From assembly GCA_902573085.1 (NCBI GenBank), contig CACGHY010000002.1, forward strand, positions 4,925 to 68,924: a stretch of DNA of 64,000 nt, in the 5' to 3' direction. The notes below the pieces were generated by a model, which made no database searches, was not told where the DNA came from, and worked only from the letters and a program-made list of their open reading frames with translations. Shown here one piece after another: positions 17,717-59,634 of this stretch. Each line of letters starts with the position of its first letter. Positions within the stretch are counted from its first letter, which is position 1. This DNA comes from an uncultured Candidatus Poseidoniales archaeon. Its GTDB lineage: Archaea; Thermoplasmatota; Poseidoniia; Poseidoniales; Thalassarchaeaceae. The position numbers and the translations under genes are program-made.

Positions 17717-17839
17717 ATGGCGACCAGTCCAGAGCAAGCAGAGGCAAATTGGGAGTTAATCAAGGGCATGGCCGCGTGGGGAGGAGTCGCTTTGCTGTGG
17801 CTCTATCTCTATGTCAAAGTCAAGGAAATCCTGAGATAA
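17717..17839 (+). CDS. 40-aa predicted membrane micro-protein
   Basis: MATSPEQAEANWELIKGMAAWGGVALLWLYLYVKVKEILR. GAGGT lies just upstream of the ATG. It is the 3' part of the otherwise implausible track ORF 17327..17839. Confidence 0.3.
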   Translation: MATSPEQAEANWELIKGMAAWGGVALLWLYLYVKVKEILR

Positions 17840-17880
17840 GGTCGGCGGGATTAAATGTCAATCCTGTCAGCACCGACGTT

Positions 17881-19464
17881 ATGAACAACGTGCCACAAGG
17901 CAACCAACCGATATTCATAATGAAGGAGGGGACGGAGCGAATCAGGGGAAAGCCCGCCCAGAGCAACAACATCGCGGCGGCTAAGGCCGTCGCTGAAACC
18001 GTGAGATCCACGCTCGGTCCAGAAGGAGCCGACAAGATGTTAGTGGACCCATCAGGAGATGTGGTCATCACCAACGACGGAGCCACGATATTGAACAGGC
18101 TAGACGTTGAACACCCTGCCGCGAAACTCATCATAGAGGTATCCGAAACCCAAGAGCAGGAGGCTCACGATGGAACGACATCAGCCGCCGTTCTGGTGGG
18201 AGCCATACTAGAACGTGCGGAGGATTTGCTAGACGACAGCATACACCAGACAATCATATGCAGGGGCTTCAAGGAGGCTCATGACTTAGCCAAGGACGAG
18301 TTAGCCACATTGGGATGGGATGCCACAGAGGAGGACTTGACTAGCGTCGCCATGACTAGCCTGACCGGGAAGAGTGCAGAAGGAGCGGCAGAGGTAATCT
18401 CAGCAATGTGCGTCGAGGCCGTCCAGACAATAGGTGATGAGGGTACGTTAGATGACATCATGGTAGCCTCATTCTCTGGTGGGACGTATGATGAGTCCGC
18501 ATTGATTCATGGTGTCCTCATAGAGAAGGAGCGAGCGCACAGCGAGATGCCCGCGAGCCTGAACGACGCTCATGTCCTACTGGTCACAGAGGAGATTGGC
18601 ATCAAGGAGTCGAAGTTCGACACGACGCTCAACATCAACAACCCAGATCAGGTCAAGGACTTCTTGGCTCAAGAGGAGGAGATGCTCAAGGGGATGTGCG
18701 CGGAGATAATATCAACAGGTGCTAATGCGGTGTTCTGCCAGAAGGAGGTGGATGACCTCGCAATGCACTATCTAGCGAAGGCCGGGATCTTCTGCCTAAA
18801 GCGCGTGAAGAAGAGCAGGATGGAGGCACTCAAGAAGGCAACGGGCGCGAGGTTCGTCAATGGCTTGGAGGATATAGACCCGGAGGACATGGGTCTGGCT
18901 TCTAGTATTGAGGAGGTCAAGTTCGGAGACTATCATTGCACGGTCCTGAAATCAGATAGGACGACAAGCGTTACTGCCGTGCTTCGTGGTAGTACCGGCC
19001 ACTCCCTAGATGAGATAGAGAGAGCATGGGACGACGCCATGGGTGTGGTTTTCCTGAGTGCTAGGGCCAAGAAATTGGTTGCAGGAGGTGGAGGAGTGTA
19101 TGCCCACCTAGCCCGACATCTGAGGTTGAAGGCCGCTACCATGGGAGACAGAAAGGGAATGGCAATCTCCGCTTTCAGCGACGCTCTGGAATCAATACCG
19201 AAGACTCTGGCGGAGAACGCCGGAATCGATCCGGTCGATGCAGTCCTCGCGCTACGCAAGGCAGAGAGCGCGGACTACGGGATAAACACACAAGGGGATG
19301 TGGTGAACATGAGGGATGCGAAGGTCATAGAGCCACACAAGGTAGTGTGGACAGCACTTGGCTCCGCTACCGAAGCCGCCATCATGATTCTAAGAATAGA
19401 CGACGTGATTAGTATGAAGGCAGGTGACGGGGGTATGCCACCAATGCCGGGGATGATGGGTTGA
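17881..19464 (+). CDS. ths: Group II chaperonin (thermosome/CCT family), 527 aa
   Basis: Starting at MNNVPQGNQPIFIMKEGTER: LGPEGADKMLV, VITNDGATIL, VEHPAAKLIIE and HDGTTSAAVL are signature motifs. The Gly/Met/Pro tail GDGGMPPMPGMMG is typical of thermosome C-termini. I chose ATG 17881 rather than the alternative start at 17749 used by the track. Confidence 0.9.
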   Translation: MNNVPQGNQPIFIMKEGTERIRGKPAQSNNIAAAKAVAETVRSTLGPEGADKMLVDPSGDVVITNDGATILNRLDVEHPAAKLIIEVSETQEQEAHDGTTSAAVLVGAILERAEDLLDDSIHQTIICRGFKEAHDLAKDELATLGWDATEEDLTSVAMTSLTGKSAEGAAEVISAMCVEAVQTIGDEGTLDDIMVASFSGGTYDESALIHGVLIEKERAHSEMPASLNDAHVLLVTEEIGIKESKFDTTLNINNPDQVKDFLAQEEEMLKGMCAEIISTGANAVFCQKEVDDLAMHYLAKAGIFCLKRVKKSRMEALKKATGARFVNGLEDIDPEDMGLASSIEEVKFGDYHCTVLKSDRTTSVTAVLRGSTGHSLDEIERAWDDAMGVVFLSARAKKLVAGGGGVYAHLARHLRLKAATMGDRKGMAISAFSDALESIPKTLAENAGIDPVDAVLALRKAESADYGINTQGDVVNMRDAKVIEPHKVVWTALGSATEAAIMILRIDDVISMKAGDGGMPPMPGMMG

Positions 19465-53665: not shown

Positions 53666-54895
53666 TCATATACCCACCAGTTGCTCGACTGCCGCGAACT
53701 CTAACTCGTAGCCCCAATAACCATCACCTGCGTTAAAGGTCGGATTGTAACTCTTGAGAACGGCAGGGATAGCAACTCCCTGCTCCAAGAATGGGTTTGG
53801 TCGGATAGTCTCGTTGTTCACTACGGTAGTGGGGTCGAAGGCCCGGTTGTTCTCCTCGGAGGAGAAGTCGGTTCCCACTCCAGATGGAATCAGGTATTGC
53901 CTTAGCACCTTGCTTCCTGAACTGGACGATGCTAGTGACTCATATGGTATTCTGACTCCAACCACATACTTCTTTACCGTCTTCATCTGATCGACGCGGA
54001 GGAAGCGGGATGCATCCTTGGAAGAGACACCATCTGGTATGTCTATGACGGAACCTGCTATCGCGTTTGGAGATACCAAAGCACCTCCTGCGCTCATGTT
54101 GGTGAGATTGAGCAAGTCCTGTACCTTGTCCTCCATGGTCTTCTTCTGACTCGATGCTCCGCCAGACATACTGGTGACTAGGAACTGATTGCTCCACGTC
54201 GCTCCTGCGTCATCCTTCGACACGGTTACTACATGGTCGCCGTTAGCCCCCTCGACCGTGTTCTTGATTGTGATTCGCTCGCCGTTGAAACCGGAGCCGC
54301 CCTGTGCATCTTGGGATAGTGTCTCCATCTGACCAGATGCCTGTGTGACGGTCAATATGGATGAGCAACCAGTAGTAGCGGTATTGACCTTGACCGATGC
54401 GCTGTTGATTGCACTAGCAATCGTATCGGCTAGGCTATCAGAGGAGGTCGTCGAGGAGATGTTAATCACGATGATGCTGTTGGTGGCTACTGTCGATGAG
54501 CCAGATCCGTTCTTCAATTGCAATGTGATGTCCTCTCCCAAGTTAGCATTGATTTGCCCGGTGGTCTGAAATCGTATGCTAACGCCATCCAAGTCAGACT
54601 TGACCGCGTTCCAACTTGCATACAACTCGTACCACGTCGCTTGAAGGGACTGACTGCCGTTGATTGAGGTGTCAATCGTCATGGATGAACCGGCTCCTCC
54701 TGTCGCGTCTGTGTCGTCCGTGAATATCCCGCTAACGGCTATGCCCACTTGTGACTGGTTCAAGTCCAGACCGACACGGGTGTTGATGATGGCGATGGGG
54801 TAGTGAGTCACCTCCCTCTGTACGTTGAAGGTTATCCTGTCAGCATCCAACTCCGTGACGGTGCTATCCCTGTGTATCATCTGAATCCTCGGCAT
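53666..54895 (-). CDS. Putative distal-tail/baseplate protein (409 aa)
   Basis: Position immediately downstream of the tape measure gene, with a 1-nt start/stop overlap. No diagnostic motif, so the call is by synteny only. Confidence 0.5.
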   Translation of the reverse strand: MPRIQMIHRDSTVTELDADRITFNVQREVTHYPIAIINTRVGLDLNQSQVGIAVSGIFTDDTDATGGAGSSMTIDTSINGSQSLQATWYELYASWNAVKSDLDGVSIRFQTTGQINANLGEDITLQLKNGSGSSTVATNSIIVINISSTTSSDSLADTIASAINSASVKVNTATTGCSSILTVTQASGQMETLSQDAQGGSGFNGERITIKNTVEGANGDHVVTVSKDDAGATWSNQFLVTSMSGGASSQKKTMEDKVQDLLNLTNMSAGGALVSPNAIAGSVIDIPDGVSSKDASRFLRVDQMKTVKKYVVGVRIPYESLASSSSGSKVLRQYLIPSGVGTDFSSEENNRAFDPTTVVNNETIRPNPFLEQGVAIPAVLKSYNPTFNAGDGYWGYELEFAAVEQLVGI

Positions 54896-56319
54896 CAGAT
54901 ACCCCTCCCGTACCCGCCAGACCTAGACCTCGACCGGAATGCCTTCTGGACTTCCATGCTTACTGCTCTGGCTATCGCGTTGGGATCTCCGCCCGTGCTA
55001 TTGACCGTTATGTTGGCGGTGAATCCACCCCCCATCCCCTCTGCTCCTTGCAGAGTCACGGGTATCGTCCTACCGTCTGGTAGTGGCACGACGGCCTCTG
55101 TGCCGTGCAGGGCTACGGCGTAACCAGAGTCAGGGCCTCTTGCTATGCCTCCCTGAGCAAACGGATTCAGAGAGGCCAAGCCACCCGTTATATCTCCTAA
55201 GTCAGGCACTATGCTTCCCAAGTCTATGTTCTTCAACTCATCAATCTTGTCTAGGATGTAGTCGATTGGAGTCATCAAGAAATCGAACATTCCACTAAGG
55301 GCCTTGGAAACTCCATCCTTGAAATCAACAGCAGAGTCATACATATCACCAAACTTTTCGCTGAAAAAGTCCGCTATCTCCCCTATACCTCCGGTGGCTA
55401 TGTATTGAATTCCTTGGAAGTAAAGTTGAATTCCTTTTAGAACGAAGGTTGCTATGCCATAAACAACATTTAGTACGCCACCAATGACCGTGCCAATGCC
55501 TTTCACGATTGTATTCAAGATAGTTCCCGATGTGGTTGCTTCCTTCACGATATTGGCAATCAACACTATAATCGCCCCTATGACTATGCCCGCAGTCTCG
55601 CCTAACATTCCGAATGTCACAATCAACTCGTTGAAGTATTCAATGAAACCACTTGCCGTGAGGAATGCGAACACCCCATTGATTATGTTCGTGAGTGTCT
55701 CACCGAGGTTGCCTCCTTCGATACCGAGAATCGCAAAGGCCTCGTTCACAGAAGCGAAGATTGCACTTACGCCCGTGCCTAGACCATCAAAGGCAGTCAT
55801 CAGGGAATCTAGTAGTCCGGTCTGTTGAAGATTTGCTACGAAGACGCTCCATGCCACTCCTAGAGCCTCAAAGGTCACAACCACGCCATTGACAAAGGCA
55901 TCAAAGGTCGATTTGAGGTCGGTTACTGTGATGCCTGTGCCTTGTAAGAGGCCGTCGAATATGGTGAGGGCATCACCTACTCCTCCTATTTTGTCACCCA
56001 TGGCAACGAAAGCAAGACCCACTAGGGTAATGACGCCGATGAGGAAGAATAGATTGCCACGAATAGCATCAAATAATCCTTTGAATAGAGTTATTGGTTT
56101 TAGGACTGCTTTGAACACATCCGCTAGTGTCTTAAGGTTTGAAATCATATTTCGGTATATGTCATAAAATGGACCGAGCGTCTTAGTAAGTGCCTTGTTT
56201 ACTGCTATCTGTCTTACCTTAATTGGAATTTCTTGTCGCCCAGATTGATTAAGTCTGAAAAGGGATGCTTCTAGTTCAGCAATCGTTCCCTTTGCCATTC
56301 TATTCGCCGTCCTGCTCAC
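54895..56319 (-). CDS. Tail tape measure protein (474 aa from GTG 56319, or 467 aa from ATG 56298)
   Basis: Position just after the G/GT chaperone pair. Long Gly/Ala/Ile/Val/Phe-rich helical-hydrophobic core (GVITLVGLAFVAMG..., GAIIVLIANIV...). The C-terminal GGIARGPDSGYAVALHGTEAVVPLPDG is typical of tape measure C-termini. Confidence 0.7.
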   Translation of the reverse strand: MSRTANRMAKGTIAELEASLFRLNQSGRQEIPIKVRQIAVNKALTKTLGPFYDIYRNMISNLKTLADVFKAVLKPITLFKGLFDAIRGNLFFLIGVITLVGLAFVAMGDKIGGVGDALTIFDGLLQGTGITVTDLKSTFDAFVNGVVVTFEALGVAWSVFVANLQQTGLLDSLMTAFDGLGTGVSAIFASVNEAFAILGIEGGNLGETLTNIINGVFAFLTASGFIEYFNELIVTFGMLGETAGIVIGAIIVLIANIVKEATTSGTILNTIVKGIGTVIGGVLNVVYGIATFVLKGIQLYFQGIQYIATGGIGEIADFFSEKFGDMYDSAVDFKDGVSKALSGMFDFLMTPIDYILDKIDELKNIDLGSIVPDLGDITGGLASLNPFAQGGIARGPDSGYAVALHGTEAVVPLPDGRTIPVTLQGAEGMGGGFTANITVNSTGGDPNAIARAVSMEVQKAFRSRSRSGGYGRGI

Positions 56320-57021
56320 TTAATTGTTGGTTGAATCTCTCAAAGAAGTCGTCAAGGTTGGCACTATCACTTGTAGTCCGTAAGGGCCTCCCCTTATTTC
56401 GGTTTCCTCCGGCGTTATAACGCTCGGCTTCTTTACGAGCCTTCTTCATCTCCTCTGTCTGTTGCTCTTGATTTACCCTCACCATTAGGTAGTCTAGGTA
56501 AACCCGATCGACTGGTTGGTCGTCCCACATATGTGGAGGACAATTGAAATGACTACCTAAAACGAATGTTATGGTCTGGAAGGAGAGCATTGCACTCTGT
56601 TCTGGAGTGAACGGATTGATTAGTCCGCCTGACGTGATGAATGACCTGAGATCAGAGTGCGTTATTCCAAAGGGCGGGGTTCACCGCCGGTCATAGTCGC
56701 TATCAATGAGTCTATTCCGGGCAGAACCTCGACTAATGAGGCCCCGACTTCTGGACTCAGGTTCACCAAGTCCTTCTTCTCGATCTTAGGCTCTGTGTCC
56801 GTGATGCAGTTTCTGAGGACGTACTGCCAATATCCCCCGAAGTCTATCCGGGGTTTCATGTCCTCTCCTTCGATTACGAAATCGACGAACTTGGATATGG
56901 CTTCCTGCTGTTGTATCCAAGTCATGGGCTTGACGTAAACCACTAGGACACCTGCGGGCGTTTCGACCTCGTGCCTCTCTGCGGACTTACCCGCTAGGAA
57001 ATCACTCGCTTTCAGAGCCAC
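56300..57021 (-). CDS. Tail assembly chaperone GT-like fusion, produced by a -1 programmed frameshift
   Basis: The -1 frame is open from 56680 down to the stop at 56300..56302. The track's ATG at 56590 has no SD-like sequence upstream. The T-frame stop lies 1 nt before the tape measure ATG at 56298. Confidence 0.5.
56662..57021 (-). CDS. Tail assembly chaperone, G-like (119 aa)
   Basis: Small acidic ORF immediately upstream of the tape measure gene. It ends ...GGEPRPLE* with the slippery heptamer CCCTTTG spanning its last codons. Confidence 0.6.
   Translation of the reverse strand: MALKASDFLAGKSAERHEVETPAGVLVVYVKPMTWIQQQEAISKFVDFVIEGEDMKPRIDFGGYWQYVLRNCITDTEPKIEKKDLVNLSPEVGASLVEVLPGIDSLIATMTGGEPRPLE
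56668..56674 (-). promoter_or_regulatory. Candidate -1 ribosomal frameshift heptamer C CCT TTG (X XXY YYZ in the G frame)
   Basis: The minus strand reads ...gaa ccc cgC CCT TTG gaa taa. Slipping back 1 nt gives ccc ttt gga ata acg..., which is the open T frame. Confidence 0.5.
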
Positions 57022-57418
57022 TCACATCACCTTCTTCATCTTCGGGAAGACGGGGATTAAAGTCATCTCCATCTCCTGCTCCGACATCTTCCCCTGTTGC
57101 GGCAGGAGCATCTTCTGCGACACTTGCTCCTCCCTCGTTGTTGGCATCCCACGCCCTCAACCTGTCAATCAACTGCTGTTTGTTGCCATAGACAGGCTCA
57201 TCTCTCTGCGTTAGTAGGACTTTCAATTGCGTGACGGTTTGTTCGTCGTAACCATCTGTTATCACTACTGGCTCTGGCTCTGGTGCTACCATTGTACCCT
57301 CAATGACGATGCCGTGTGCGCTCAGGCCCGGACCCTCAATGATGGAACCATCTGCACCAATAGTCCAATCCAGTCTCTCTCTTGAACCGTTTAATGTGAC
57401 GAATCCCTTGACTCTCAT
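57002..57418 (-). CDS. Tail-module protein with SAP/HeH-like motif and acidic tail (138 aa)
   Basis: TVTQLKVLLTQRDEPVYGNKQQLIDRLRAW matches the SAP pattern (L..LL..R.L...G.K..LI.RL). Beta-rich N-terminal 55 aa and an acidic C-terminus. Confidence 0.55.
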   Translation of the reverse strand: MRVKGFVTLNGSRERLDWTIGADGSIIEGPGLSAHGIVIEGTMVAPEPEPVVITDGYDEQTVTQLKVLLTQRDEPVYGNKQQLIDRLRAWDANNEGGASVAEDAPAATGEDVGAGDGDDFNPRLPEDEEGDVSGSESE

Positions 57419-57456: not shown

Positions 57457-59634
57457 TCACATAATGAAATATGGATTGTTTTCAGTTATCTTCATGTGTC
57501 TTACAACCAATTCGACATCAGCGATTATCGGCCCCTTGTCATCTGGCAATTGATGATCTGACTTCATTATGGTGTAGTCCTCAACGGTAATGGTAGCACT
57601 CTCCCTTGTGGTAGCACTTCCGGGTTTAGTTAGGGTGAAGGTTATGTCATTCGTGTTCTTGTGATGCTTCCTTTGCCTGAGTTCGTCCCAGAACCTGTCA
57701 TCCTCCACCAATGCCTTGAATGTGAATGAGTATTCTCTCTTTGCCTCAGTTATGTCAAGAGGCATCTGGGTAGCACCCCTCTGCACTTGATCGGTGGATT
57801 GCGTGGTTCCTTCGTAACCCCTGATGTACCACCTTGCTTCCGTGCTGTTGCTGACTGAGATGTTGAACTCGGTTGCTCTCAAGACCGGACGACCGAAAAC
57901 GGATATGCTGATGTCTTGGAAGAGGTATGGTTTCTCTCCGCTAGTAGCAATTCCACTCACCTTTCGATTTGCGGTGGTGTTGGCTGTGTTCTCAAACATC
58001 CTGTGGGGAGAGAACATATTGTTGGTATCTGTGTAGTGCCTCGTTGCTTGGTAAGATGCCTCCAACTTCAACTCGCCTTCCGTGTTAGCGGACAAGGATG
58101 CCTCGGATACTTTGCAACCACTATACATCCTAAGCAATTGCTCGCCGCCGGGTGTCTCATCGCTGTTCCTGTACGACTGCTCAATCATGAAGGAGGGGAG
58201 GGTGGTGTGGCCGAAGAAGGTGTGTTCAACCCCGTTCTGCAACTCCTTCGTAGTGGCGTTGATGTTTGGACTGCCCCTTGCGTCATTGGAGGAATAGACT
58301 ATCCTGTCGATTCCACACTTGTTTACCGCGTGAGAGAACATGAATGGCTCCTCGACATAGATGAAGTCTCCATCGGTGGCGATTATCCTCCTGACCTCGT
58401 GCTTGAACACAGAGGGCGCAACATCGTCCTGTCCGGGTATGTTGTGAGTCTCTGAGTCTATGATCTGAACGTAGTCACCCACGGAGAACAAGGCTCTCAG
58501 AGTCGCACCGACATTCAAACGAATATCTCCAACCGAACAGGCGGCGGCTAGTGGTGGGAGGAGGAATATCGTCTTGTCTGCCGCTAGAGCCGCAGTAGCC
58601 GCACCTGAGTCTATGTCTGCGATCGTCTGAATCGTGTGTGATGAGATTGCCCCATACGATGCGTACTTGATTTCCCCTCCGCTAACGACCTTGAGGACTC
58701 CTCCACTCGCGTTAGTCGATACGAAGATATTCTTGGAGTCTGTCACTAGCACCGTGTCATCGCTTGATGTCGAAGTGGACTTTGCACCTATTAGCACGTT
58801 GTCACCCGTGGCAATCCCACTAAGGCTGTCGAGGCCGGAGAACACCGTTCCGCTAGTTGCCACGGAGGCTATGTCCACATCGTTTCCATTGGAAACCTTC
58901 TCGGCCTTGTAAGTCGCCGCGCTGACTGCATCAACGATATTGAATGGCTTCGCACTAACCGTGTTGCTTGAGCCTGTCTTTGTAGCCAACTCTCCTTGAC
59001 TCTTGGCGGTGTGACCTCCTAGAGCGTACTTCATCCACCTCAGAGTGTGAGCGTTGAGAGAGATGCTTCCCCCATCGAGAGTCTCTCTTCCGCTTGTTAT
59101 CACATTGACATCCCTGCCCAAGCCAACGACGTGTTGCTTCCTCACGTCAATCTGAGGTTCCGGTAGTGCGAATGACTCTAGCAGACCTATGAATTGGTCG
59201 CTCTTTACTTTCTGACTGTTCGTAGCATCAGACATCCCTGCCTCAAAGGTAGGCGTTCTAAATGAGTCGATTACTAGGTTATCAGAACCACCCGCCGCTT
59301 GAGATGCACTCGTAGCCAATGCCGGTTGGACAGTAATCGTACCTAGTGACGTGTCATTGGCCGTAATGTAGTATGACCTACGAGTGGTTGCGAAGTTATC
59401 TGCGGAGAAGTTTGTTCCTCCCTCGATCCTCAACACACATCCAACCAGAGCATTGTCCGGCATCTCGACGACGGTCGATGAGCCGGTGTGCCAGTATGCA
59501 CTTGAACCCACAGTTATGACGCTCGTACTGCCAGAAGTGGACGTAAGTGTCCAAGTTGCCCCATCACAGCGTAGTCCTGTTTCTTTGCCGAACGAAACTT
59601 CGGCCAAATCACCCTTGAATAACGCATTTGCCAT
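57457..59634 (-). CDS. Putative major tail protein (tube with insertion, or sheath), 725 aa
   Basis: Position upstream of the chaperones and tape measure. The Ser/Thr/Gly/Ala-rich beta-type sequence gives no diagnostic motif, so the assignment is by synteny. Confidence 0.55.
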   Translation of the reverse strand: MANALFKGDLAEVSFGKETGLRCDGATWTLTSTSGSTSVITVGSSAYWHTGSSTVVEMPDNALVGCVLRIEGGTNFSADNFATTRRSYYITANDTSLGTITVQPALATSASQAAGGSDNLVIDSFRTPTFEAGMSDATNSQKVKSDQFIGLLESFALPEPQIDVRKQHVVGLGRDVNVITSGRETLDGGSISLNAHTLRWMKYALGGHTAKSQGELATKTGSSNTVSAKPFNIVDAVSAATYKAEKVSNGNDVDIASVATSGTVFSGLDSLSGIATGDNVLIGAKSTSTSSDDTVLVTDSKNIFVSTNASGGVLKVVSGGEIKYASYGAISSHTIQTIADIDSGAATAALAADKTIFLLPPLAAACSVGDIRLNVGATLRALFSVGDYVQIIDSETHNIPGQDDVAPSVFKHEVRRIIATDGDFIYVEEPFMFSHAVNKCGIDRIVYSSNDARGSPNINATTKELQNGVEHTFFGHTTLPSFMIEQSYRNSDETPGGEQLLRMYSGCKVSEASLSANTEGELKLEASYQATRHYTDTNNMFSPHRMFENTANTTANRKVSGIATSGEKPYLFQDISISVFGRPVLRATEFNISVSNSTEARWYIRGYEGTTQSTDQVQRGATQMPLDITEAKREYSFTFKALVEDDRFWDELRQRKHHKNTNDITFTLTKPGSATTRESATITVEDYTIMKSDHQLPDDKGPIIADVELVVRHMKITENNPYFIM

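Follow-up and report, generated by a model that had tools for sequence, protein, structure and literature searches.

The stretch analysed here (the window) comprises 64,000 nucleotides (nt), positions 4925-68924 of the 106-kb contig CACGHY010000002.1, which is part of a 1.16-Mb, 55-contig assembly (GCA_902573085.1). On its minus strand, two overlapping open reading frames (ORFs) lie between a tail tube gene and a tape measure gene. They are probably joined by a programmed -1 ribosomal frameshift at the heptamer C CCT TTG (56674..56668), which would yield a 240-aa fusion protein of the kind known from the tail chaperones G and GT of phage lambda. We put the probability of this reading, which draws on comparative sequence evidence, at roughly 0.9. 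An initial annotation of the window had proposed that the site reproduces the G/GT arrangement of tailed phages. The proposal is strongly supported by the synteny of the region, the invariance of the heptamer, the lack of a conserved independent start for the second ORF, and the chaperone fold of the first protein; these points, together with the signal itself and its register, are established here.

According to the proposed mechanism, most ribosomes would translate the first ORF into a 119-aa chaperone (the G protein), ending at the TAA at 56664..56662. At C CCU UUG, a minority would slip back by one base and read on in the -1 frame as far as the TAG at 56302..56300, and the second part (T) would then be made solely as the C-terminal part of the 240-aa fusion (GT). 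By analogy with lambda, G and the G part of GT would coat the tape measure protein encoded directly downstream, while the T part would recruit the tail tube protein, with the frequency of slippage setting a fixed G:GT ratio. The slip, its frequency, and this division of labour between G and T are what we infer.

The overlapping frames and the heptamer between them

The G-like tail assembly chaperone ORF (56662..57021, minus strand) occupies the zero frame. It begins with a GTG preceded by the Shine-Dalgarno (SD)-like sequence AAGGTGAT, for which an SD duplex of -10.5 kcal/mol was calculated, and its 3' end reads GGC GGT GAA CCC CGC CCT TTG GAA TAA. A script located the heptamer at 56668..56674 on the minus strand, in the X XXY YYZ register (C|CCT|TTG). 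Upstream, the -1 frame is limited by a TGA (56681..56683, minus strand); it is open from 56680, which gives an overlap of 19 nt between the zero and -1 frames in the window. The T part (56300..56668, minus strand) extends over 122 aa from the GGA at 56668 to its TAG, and a single base (56299) separates that stop from the tape measure ATG at 56298. Reading via TTG and then GGA, the predicted GT fusion spans 56300..57021 on the minus strand and consists of 118 aa from the zero frame and 122 aa from the -1 frame. The initial annotation had described this layout, from the CGC CCT TTG GAA TAA end of the first ORF and the position and register of the heptamer to the open -1 frame between 56680 and 56300..56302, the distance of 1 nt to the tape measure gene and a fusion of about 240 aa, and its coordinates proved exact throughout.

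The bare string CCCTTTG is not rare, with 10 copies in the window against 8.3 expected. As an in-frame C CCT TTG, it was found only once when the ORFs of 100 aa or more were examined over the entire 106-kb contig, and that is at this site. What takes the site beyond chance is the register of the heptamer, its position within the 19-nt overlap (a chance of about 2% by our own estimate) and, above all, its invariance in relatives.

Relatives were obtained as 60 contigs from three IMG/VR scans, and in the T part they are 41 to 100% identical to the window. At the homologous position, CCCTTTGG is present in 60 of the 60 contigs. The zero-frame stop is fixed just as strictly: it comes two codons on from the heptamer, with one intervening codon, in all 60. 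The stop itself can be TAA, TAG or TGA, and the codon in between is any of eight that start with G. Across the relatives, the frame overlap spans 10 to 109 nt. At the lower end of this range are seven loci (L036, L039-41 and L044-46) in which a -1 frame stop stands directly before CCC and the overlap is only 10 nt; in these, the frame change must therefore fall within CCCTTTGGNN. Conservation in related genomes had been named as a check in the initial annotation, and both the in-frame slippery site and the overlapping frames around it are kept throughout the 60 contigs, under a constraint on nucleotides that goes beyond the protein level.

This constraint was measured at the level of codons among 30 non-identical sequences (435 pairs). 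All 435 pairs encode the Pro and Leu of the site with CCT and TTG; in other invariant Pro and Leu columns, a codon is shared by just 90 to 162 pairs. In a five-codon window, synonymous identity peaks at 0.8-0.88 at the site, compared with 0.47 overall. The codon before CCT can be CGC, AGC, TCC, GCC, GAC, AAC, GGC or ACC, standing for seven amino acids, and its third base is always C. Such a codon pattern at the heptamer is the signature of selection on nucleotides rather than residues.

A change of frame at the level of the nucleic acid, that is, transcriptional slippage, an assembly or sequencing indel, or a decaying pseudogene, is a generic alternative for any split gene, and nothing specific speaks for it here. 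It is contradicted by the recurrence of the same two-frame layout in 60 independently assembled contigs from many samples, and by purifying selection, which acts on both the G and the T part among the relatives. Transcriptional slippage needs long runs of A or T (reviewed in PMC5009743), and CCCTTT contains no homopolymer run longer than three. The chance that an event of this kind accounts for the layout is close to nil.

In two relatives (L016, 2968-2974; L018, 2415-2421), C CCT TTG is preceded at a distance of 30 nt by a further in-frame heptamer, G GGG GGA, which is not conserved elsewhere. In these two, the -1 frame is open for 70-109 nt upstream of the zero-frame stop, and a slip at G GGG GGA would yield a slightly different fusion. 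No proviral copy was found when genome contigs were scanned with a T profile, and neither blastn of the tail module nor tblastn of the T part gave a match in the GenBank phage collection.

Products of the two frames

The 119-aa protein models as a tail assembly chaperone, as would be expected of the first ORF in a G/GT pair. Its AlphaFold2 model, built from 23 relatives, has a predicted local distance difference test (pLDDT) score of 78. In a Foldseek search of BFVD, this model matched the tail assembly chaperone of Haloarcula hispanica tailed virus 2 (HHTV-2) with an E value of 6.4e-7 and a TM score of 0.64; other matches were chaperones of Bacillus and Arthrobacter phages, tape measure chaperones of Salmonella and Vibrio phages, and the Mu frameshift product FS-gp41. 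At the sequence level, the protein has weak matches in PHROG (E about 0.05), all of them to families of the "tail assembly chaperone" category, and phrog_25860 is matched, again weakly, by 8 of 23 G relatives (best E 5.8e-4). Nothing meaningful came from the PDB, whether its sequences were searched with the G and T profiles or its structures with the G model in Foldseek.

The T part is predicted to be all-helical, with four helices and a pLDDT of 74.5 for the AlphaFold2 model, and Foldseek found no structural match for it in BFVD. Its most conserved stretch is HFxCPPHxWDDxP at residues 40-52, where 23 sequences agree without exception on H, F, C, P, P, H, W, D and the final P. When 1.84 billion representative proteins were searched with the profile, the T domain was found in only 11, and because of this scarcity the domain seems confined to this virus group. 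The 11 proteins are 44-115 aa long and their profile starts are scattered; scattered short calls are what gene callers produce for a frame without a true start.

Across the family, the second ORF is without a conserved start of its own, as in the -1 overlap of a G/GT pair. The T protein is conserved from the residue that directly follows the heptamer, an invariant Gly, and the T frame is free of stops over its first 90 nt in 30 of 30 sequences, compared with stops in 30 and 19 sequences for the other two frames. The second ORF might nevertheless be translated separately, with no frameshift, from the ATG at 56590, from another internal or near-cognate start, or by termination and reinitiation at the G stop. 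An ATG does exist at 56590, some relatives have a near-cognate or NTG codon as T codon 2, and part of the family has GAGGA ahead of a TTG, GTG or ATG at T codon 7-8. Conservation, however, is seen for none of these starts. Relatives have Val, Ile, Ala or Leu in place of the Met of ATG 56590, and the conserved protein begins right after the heptamer, 26 codons upstream of this ATG. Read along the T frame, the earliest ATG, GTG or TTG occurs anywhere from codon 2 to codon 112; in L024, L035 and L010, the first NTG comes only at T codons 47, 60 and 112, at or past the invariant CPPHxWDD core.

The strength of ribosome binding also speaks against a separate start. The 3' end of the host 16S rRNA is GGATCACCTCCT, and the ATG at 56590 forms a duplex of -2.4 kcal/mol with this tail, against -8 to -12 kcal/mol at the starts of the G, tape measure, 409-aa, 124-aa and 2717-aa genes, which agrees with the remark in the initial annotation that this ATG lacks any SD-like sequence. 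Separate translation would moreover leave the invariant CCT and TTG codons and the C preceding them unexplained, and it is very improbable.

The GAGGA motif belongs to relatives of the YEDLV clade (L028, L036, L039 and L042-L044). There, T codons 5-8 contain GAGGA, encoding Glu-Asp, and a TTG, GTG or ATG follows 1-4 nt on, which has the look of an internal SD sequence and start. Because the motif is absent in L035 and L045 and its spacing is too close for TTG, it probably arises incidentally from the residues and from the CGAGGA/UCCUCG hairpin listed below.

Slippage and stimulatory elements

On C CCU UUG, the tRNA in the P site would re-pair from CCU to CCC and that in the A site from UUG to UUU, with at least two of three pairs kept. 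The co-binned metagenome-assembled genome (MAG) encodes tRNA-Pro(GGG), tRNA-Pro(UGG) and tRNA-Leu(CAA). In the case of tRNA-Pro(GGG), a G.U wobble on CCU would be replaced by G-C and full pairing on CCC, which would favour the slip, and tRNA-Leu(CAA) would keep two of three pairs on UUU. The sequence of the site and the tRNAs of the MAG are thus compatible with re-pairing in the -1 frame at the P site as well as at the A site, as tandem slippage requires. In Escherichia coli, C_CC.U_UU.G shifts at more than 0.1% without stimulators and is under-represented in genes (Sharma et al., PMC4066793).

No common structure downstream of the heptamer was found by RNAalifold in eight relatives. Folded as single sequences, most lineages have a hairpin of 7-12 bp with a 5' arm starting 6-8 nt past the heptamer. 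The stem pairs are specific to clades and include CCUACCCU/AGGGUAGG, CUUACCCU/AGGGUAAG, CCCACUCGGA/UUCGGGUGGG, CUUCUCCG/CGGAGAAG, UUAUGAGG/CCUCAUGA and CGAGGA/UCCUCG. The 5' arm is anchored at +6..+8 and its 3' partner is found in different codons depending on the clade (L017, L027, L013, L147 and L156; region +6 to +55 nt). Paired residues change together through amino-acid replacements, TYP occurring with RVG, TFS with GE and TFP with GK. The downstream stem appears to have been rebuilt repeatedly.

Statistics were compiled for 37 lineage representatives with less than 90% identity, whose relatedness means that the values are not clean probabilities. Of the 37 lineages, 23 have a helix of 5 bp or more that is uninterrupted and starts at +5..+9, compared with 21% of 10,722 control windows taken from the same loci. 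The 45-nt minimum free energy has a median rank of 0.13, and against synonymous resampling, in which the protein is kept, the mean z is -1.37, with 14 of the 37 lineages below 0.05, a codon choice tilted towards structure. The ITY/ITF clades show the predicted tendency towards downstream structure clearly; the YEDLV clade does not show it.

For the window itself, the sole candidate for a stimulatory stem-loop is long-range and begins 7 nt after the heptamer (56592..56660, minus strand), with an 8-bp base helix of GCACUCUG (56660..56653) and CAGAGUGC (56599..56592) that encloses an inner hairpin. Over 80 nt, a length picked after the fold had been seen, it scores z -3.1 against dinucleotide shuffles and z -2.5 against synonymous resampling. 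It is absent from relatives of 84% identity and not significant at 45-60 nt. The downstream hairpin that the initial annotation had suggested looking for is predicted at canonical spacing in most related lineages, and is weak and uncertain in the window itself.

An upstream SD-like stimulator of the dnaX type was considered and rejected. The SD-like GGCGGUGA lies 6 nt before the heptamer and pairs with the tail of the host 16S rRNA at -10.9 kcal/mol, and the family has a median rank of 0.04. The complementarity shows no excess over synonymous resampling (median fraction 0.42), and it is not counted as evidence because conserved Gly-Gly-Glu/Val codons explain all of it.

Several points weigh against a -1 frameshift at C CCU UUG or soften the evidence for it. 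Position Z of slippery heptamers is usually not G (PMC8211752), and U_UUG is a weak A-site motif in E. coli (PMC4066793). The invariance of the seventh base of the heptamer, G7, is inseparable from the invariant Gly codon of the T frame. The window lacks the local hairpin of its relatives, with ranks of 0.62-0.77 and z +0.16 in the 45-60-nt tests. Because the related contigs are not phylogenetically independent, the significance stated for any p-value is an upper bound. A naturally fused G-T protein, which would prove that the functional form is the fusion, did not turn up in the T-profile search of the 1.84 billion representative proteins. Finally, the assignment of the host is based on binning and on a thermosome gene.

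Some of these points bear on how the slip would proceed. If the P-site tRNA slipped alone, UUU would be decoded as Phe and the junction would read ...RPFGITH; the site and the fusion would be the same, with less dependence on downstream structure. The window has no convincing local hairpin, and one-tRNA slippage has been described as independent of stimulatory elements (PMC8211752). The tRNA-Pro(GGG) of the MAG would gain a Watson-Crick pair on CCC, and the poor performance of U_UUG as an A-site slip motif in E. coli likewise fits slippage of one tRNA. Other observations fit it less well. Codon UUG is not rare, its share of the Leu codons being 26% for the viral contig and 16% for the host, and CCU accounts for about a quarter of Pro codons in the contig; this ordinary usage argues mildly against a starved A site. 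In most related lineages, a predicted hairpin is retained at a distance characteristic of two-tRNA slippage. None of the three U's varies, which tandem re-pairing needs, although coding for Phe and Leu also constrains them. That the P-site tRNA alone slips is possible, at odds well short of even, and two-tRNA slippage with the junction ...RPLGITH is somewhat more likely. The junction ...RP|FGITH given in the initial annotation would hold if the P-site tRNA slipped alone; under two-tRNA slippage, with Leu decoded before the slip, it would have to be replaced by ...RPL|GITH.

Bacterial phage families reportedly swap their heptamers freely. The absolute invariance of C CCU UUG might, as a speculation to which we give little weight, reflect a decoding peculiarity of Poseidoniales ribosomes or tRNAs (tRNA-Pro(GGG) or tRNA-Leu(CAA), or their modifications) that leaves this site with Z=G as the only one at which these hosts shift efficiently by -1. 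On that view, the hairpin would be a helper that can be dispensed with and has been rebuilt repeatedly with a migrating 3' arm, and the signal would amount to a frameshift "dialect" specific to the lineage, in an archaeal group that is uncultured and abundant worldwide.

Tail module, virus and comparison with known systems

The genes around the chaperone pair follow the order tail tube, SAP-domain gene, chaperone pair and tape measure on one strand, which is the location of a G/GT pair. The upstream neighbour is a 725-aa tail tube protein gene (57457..59634, minus strand; PF18906 Phage_tube_2, E 1.5e-10). The Phage_tube_2 match is limited to residues 470-707, and the N-terminal 470 residues are without a family match. 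Between the tube gene and the chaperone pair lies the gene of a 138-aa protein with a SAP domain (57002..57418, minus strand; PF02037, E 1.8e-7); the protein has an acidic tail and is an unusual occupant of this slot.

Downstream, the tape measure protein gene (54895..56298, minus strand; 467 aa from ATG 56298) matches phrog_58 with an E value of 1.9e-11 and nine other tape measure PHROGs. The listed ORF begins this gene at GTG 56319 (474 aa). The 467-aa form is more likely, because ATG 56298 has the better SD duplex (-8.2 kcal/mol, against -3.3 at the alternative GTG 56319) and because in relatives an ATG lies no more than a few bases from the T stop.

The assembly encodes an archaeal S8e protein that is 100% identical to that of several marine group II/Poseidoniales MAGs and single-cell genomes, and the window contains a full-length thermosome subunit gene (17749..19464, plus strand; NF041082, E 3e-174, 580 bits). 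Thermosome genes are known from magrovirus groups A and D, and magrovirus genomes measure 65-100 kb (Philosof et al., PMC5434244). Because of the marine group II/Poseidoniales binning and the thermosome gene, the contig is read as a putative magrovirus-like tailed virus binned with its probable host, a Poseidoniales MAG. Also encoded on the 106-kb contig are an ERCC4-HhH nuclease, a PD-(D/E)XK nuclease and a giant ArdC-like protein; no tRNA genes were found on it.

Neither the original magrovirus paper (PMC5434244) nor the 2025 survey of Poseidoniales viruses (PMC11706807) mentions a frameshift, and a full-text literature search for the heptamer string returned unrelated papers only. For this family of abundant marine archaeal viruses, the present reading would correct the annotation: the second ORF, so far called from internal positions that are arbitrary, should be given as a joined 240-aa GT product. 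It would also provide a very well supported comparative case of -1 frameshifting on archaeal ribosomes, in a domain where experimental proof of such frameshifting has so far been limited to a fucosidase gene of Sulfolobus (PMC8211752). The signal C CCU UUG is well defined and, with or without the downstream stem, suited to reporter tests, making it a possible model of archaeal frameshifting. The picture of tail assembly is unchanged; the frameshift is expected for any long-tailed virus and is not surprising here.

The E. coli dnaX signal is a relative in form. Both heptamers end in G, both are preceded by an SD-like element, and a hairpin lies 5-9 nt downstream, here as a prediction for most related lineages. 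The SD-like spacing is 10-14 nt in dnaX and shorter, at 6-7 nt, in these viruses, whose hairpin is conserved neither in sequence nor in the position of its 3' arm.

Counterparts are also found among archaeal viruses. Frameshifts of the G-T -1 type have been predicted in the haloarchaeal siphoviruses HVTV-1 and HCTV-1, 2 and 5 (cited in PMC5009743 and PMC8211752). These are likewise tailed viruses of archaea with a chaperone pair joined by a predicted -1 shift, and the nearest structural match of the G model is the chaperone of a haloarchaeal virus. The predictions reportedly go back to Pietila 2013 and Sencilo 2013. In HCTV-2, the GenBank record annotates a joined chaperone coding sequence between the tube and tape measure genes, as would apply here; its site is A AAA AAC and directly abuts the stop, whereas in the present family C CCU UUG is followed by one codon and then the stop. 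The HCTV-2 chaperone was also the top match of the G part in a tblastn search of the GenBank phage collection, at about 28% identity over 74 residues, which with an E value of 3 is not significant. The hosts differ in lineage, being Halobacteria in one case and marine Poseidoniales in the other.

The arrangement matches that of lambda gpG/gpGT, whose -1 frameshift is of a type conserved in long-tailed phages (PMC5009743). In both systems, a pair of overlapping ORFs lies in the interval from the major tail (tube) gene to the tape measure gene. The second ORF, which has no start of its own, is read in the -1 frame, and the first carries an X XXY YYZ heptamer close to its end. In both, the G part has a chaperone fold, and the short product would be abundant and the long fusion rare. 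The lambda gpG/gpGT shift and its conservation as a tail chaperone frameshift of long-tailed double-stranded DNA phages were reportedly described by Levin 1993 and by Xu, Hendrix and Duda 2004. Unlike lambda, where the heptamer is G GGA AAG, the archaeal virus family uses C CCU UUG; no sequence similarity to lambda G or T is detectable, and an extra gene, that of the 138-aa SAP-domain protein, stands between the tube and G genes. The family departs from the known systems in its heptamer, in the zero-frame stop that follows the heptamer family-wide at a fixed distance of one codon, and in its host.

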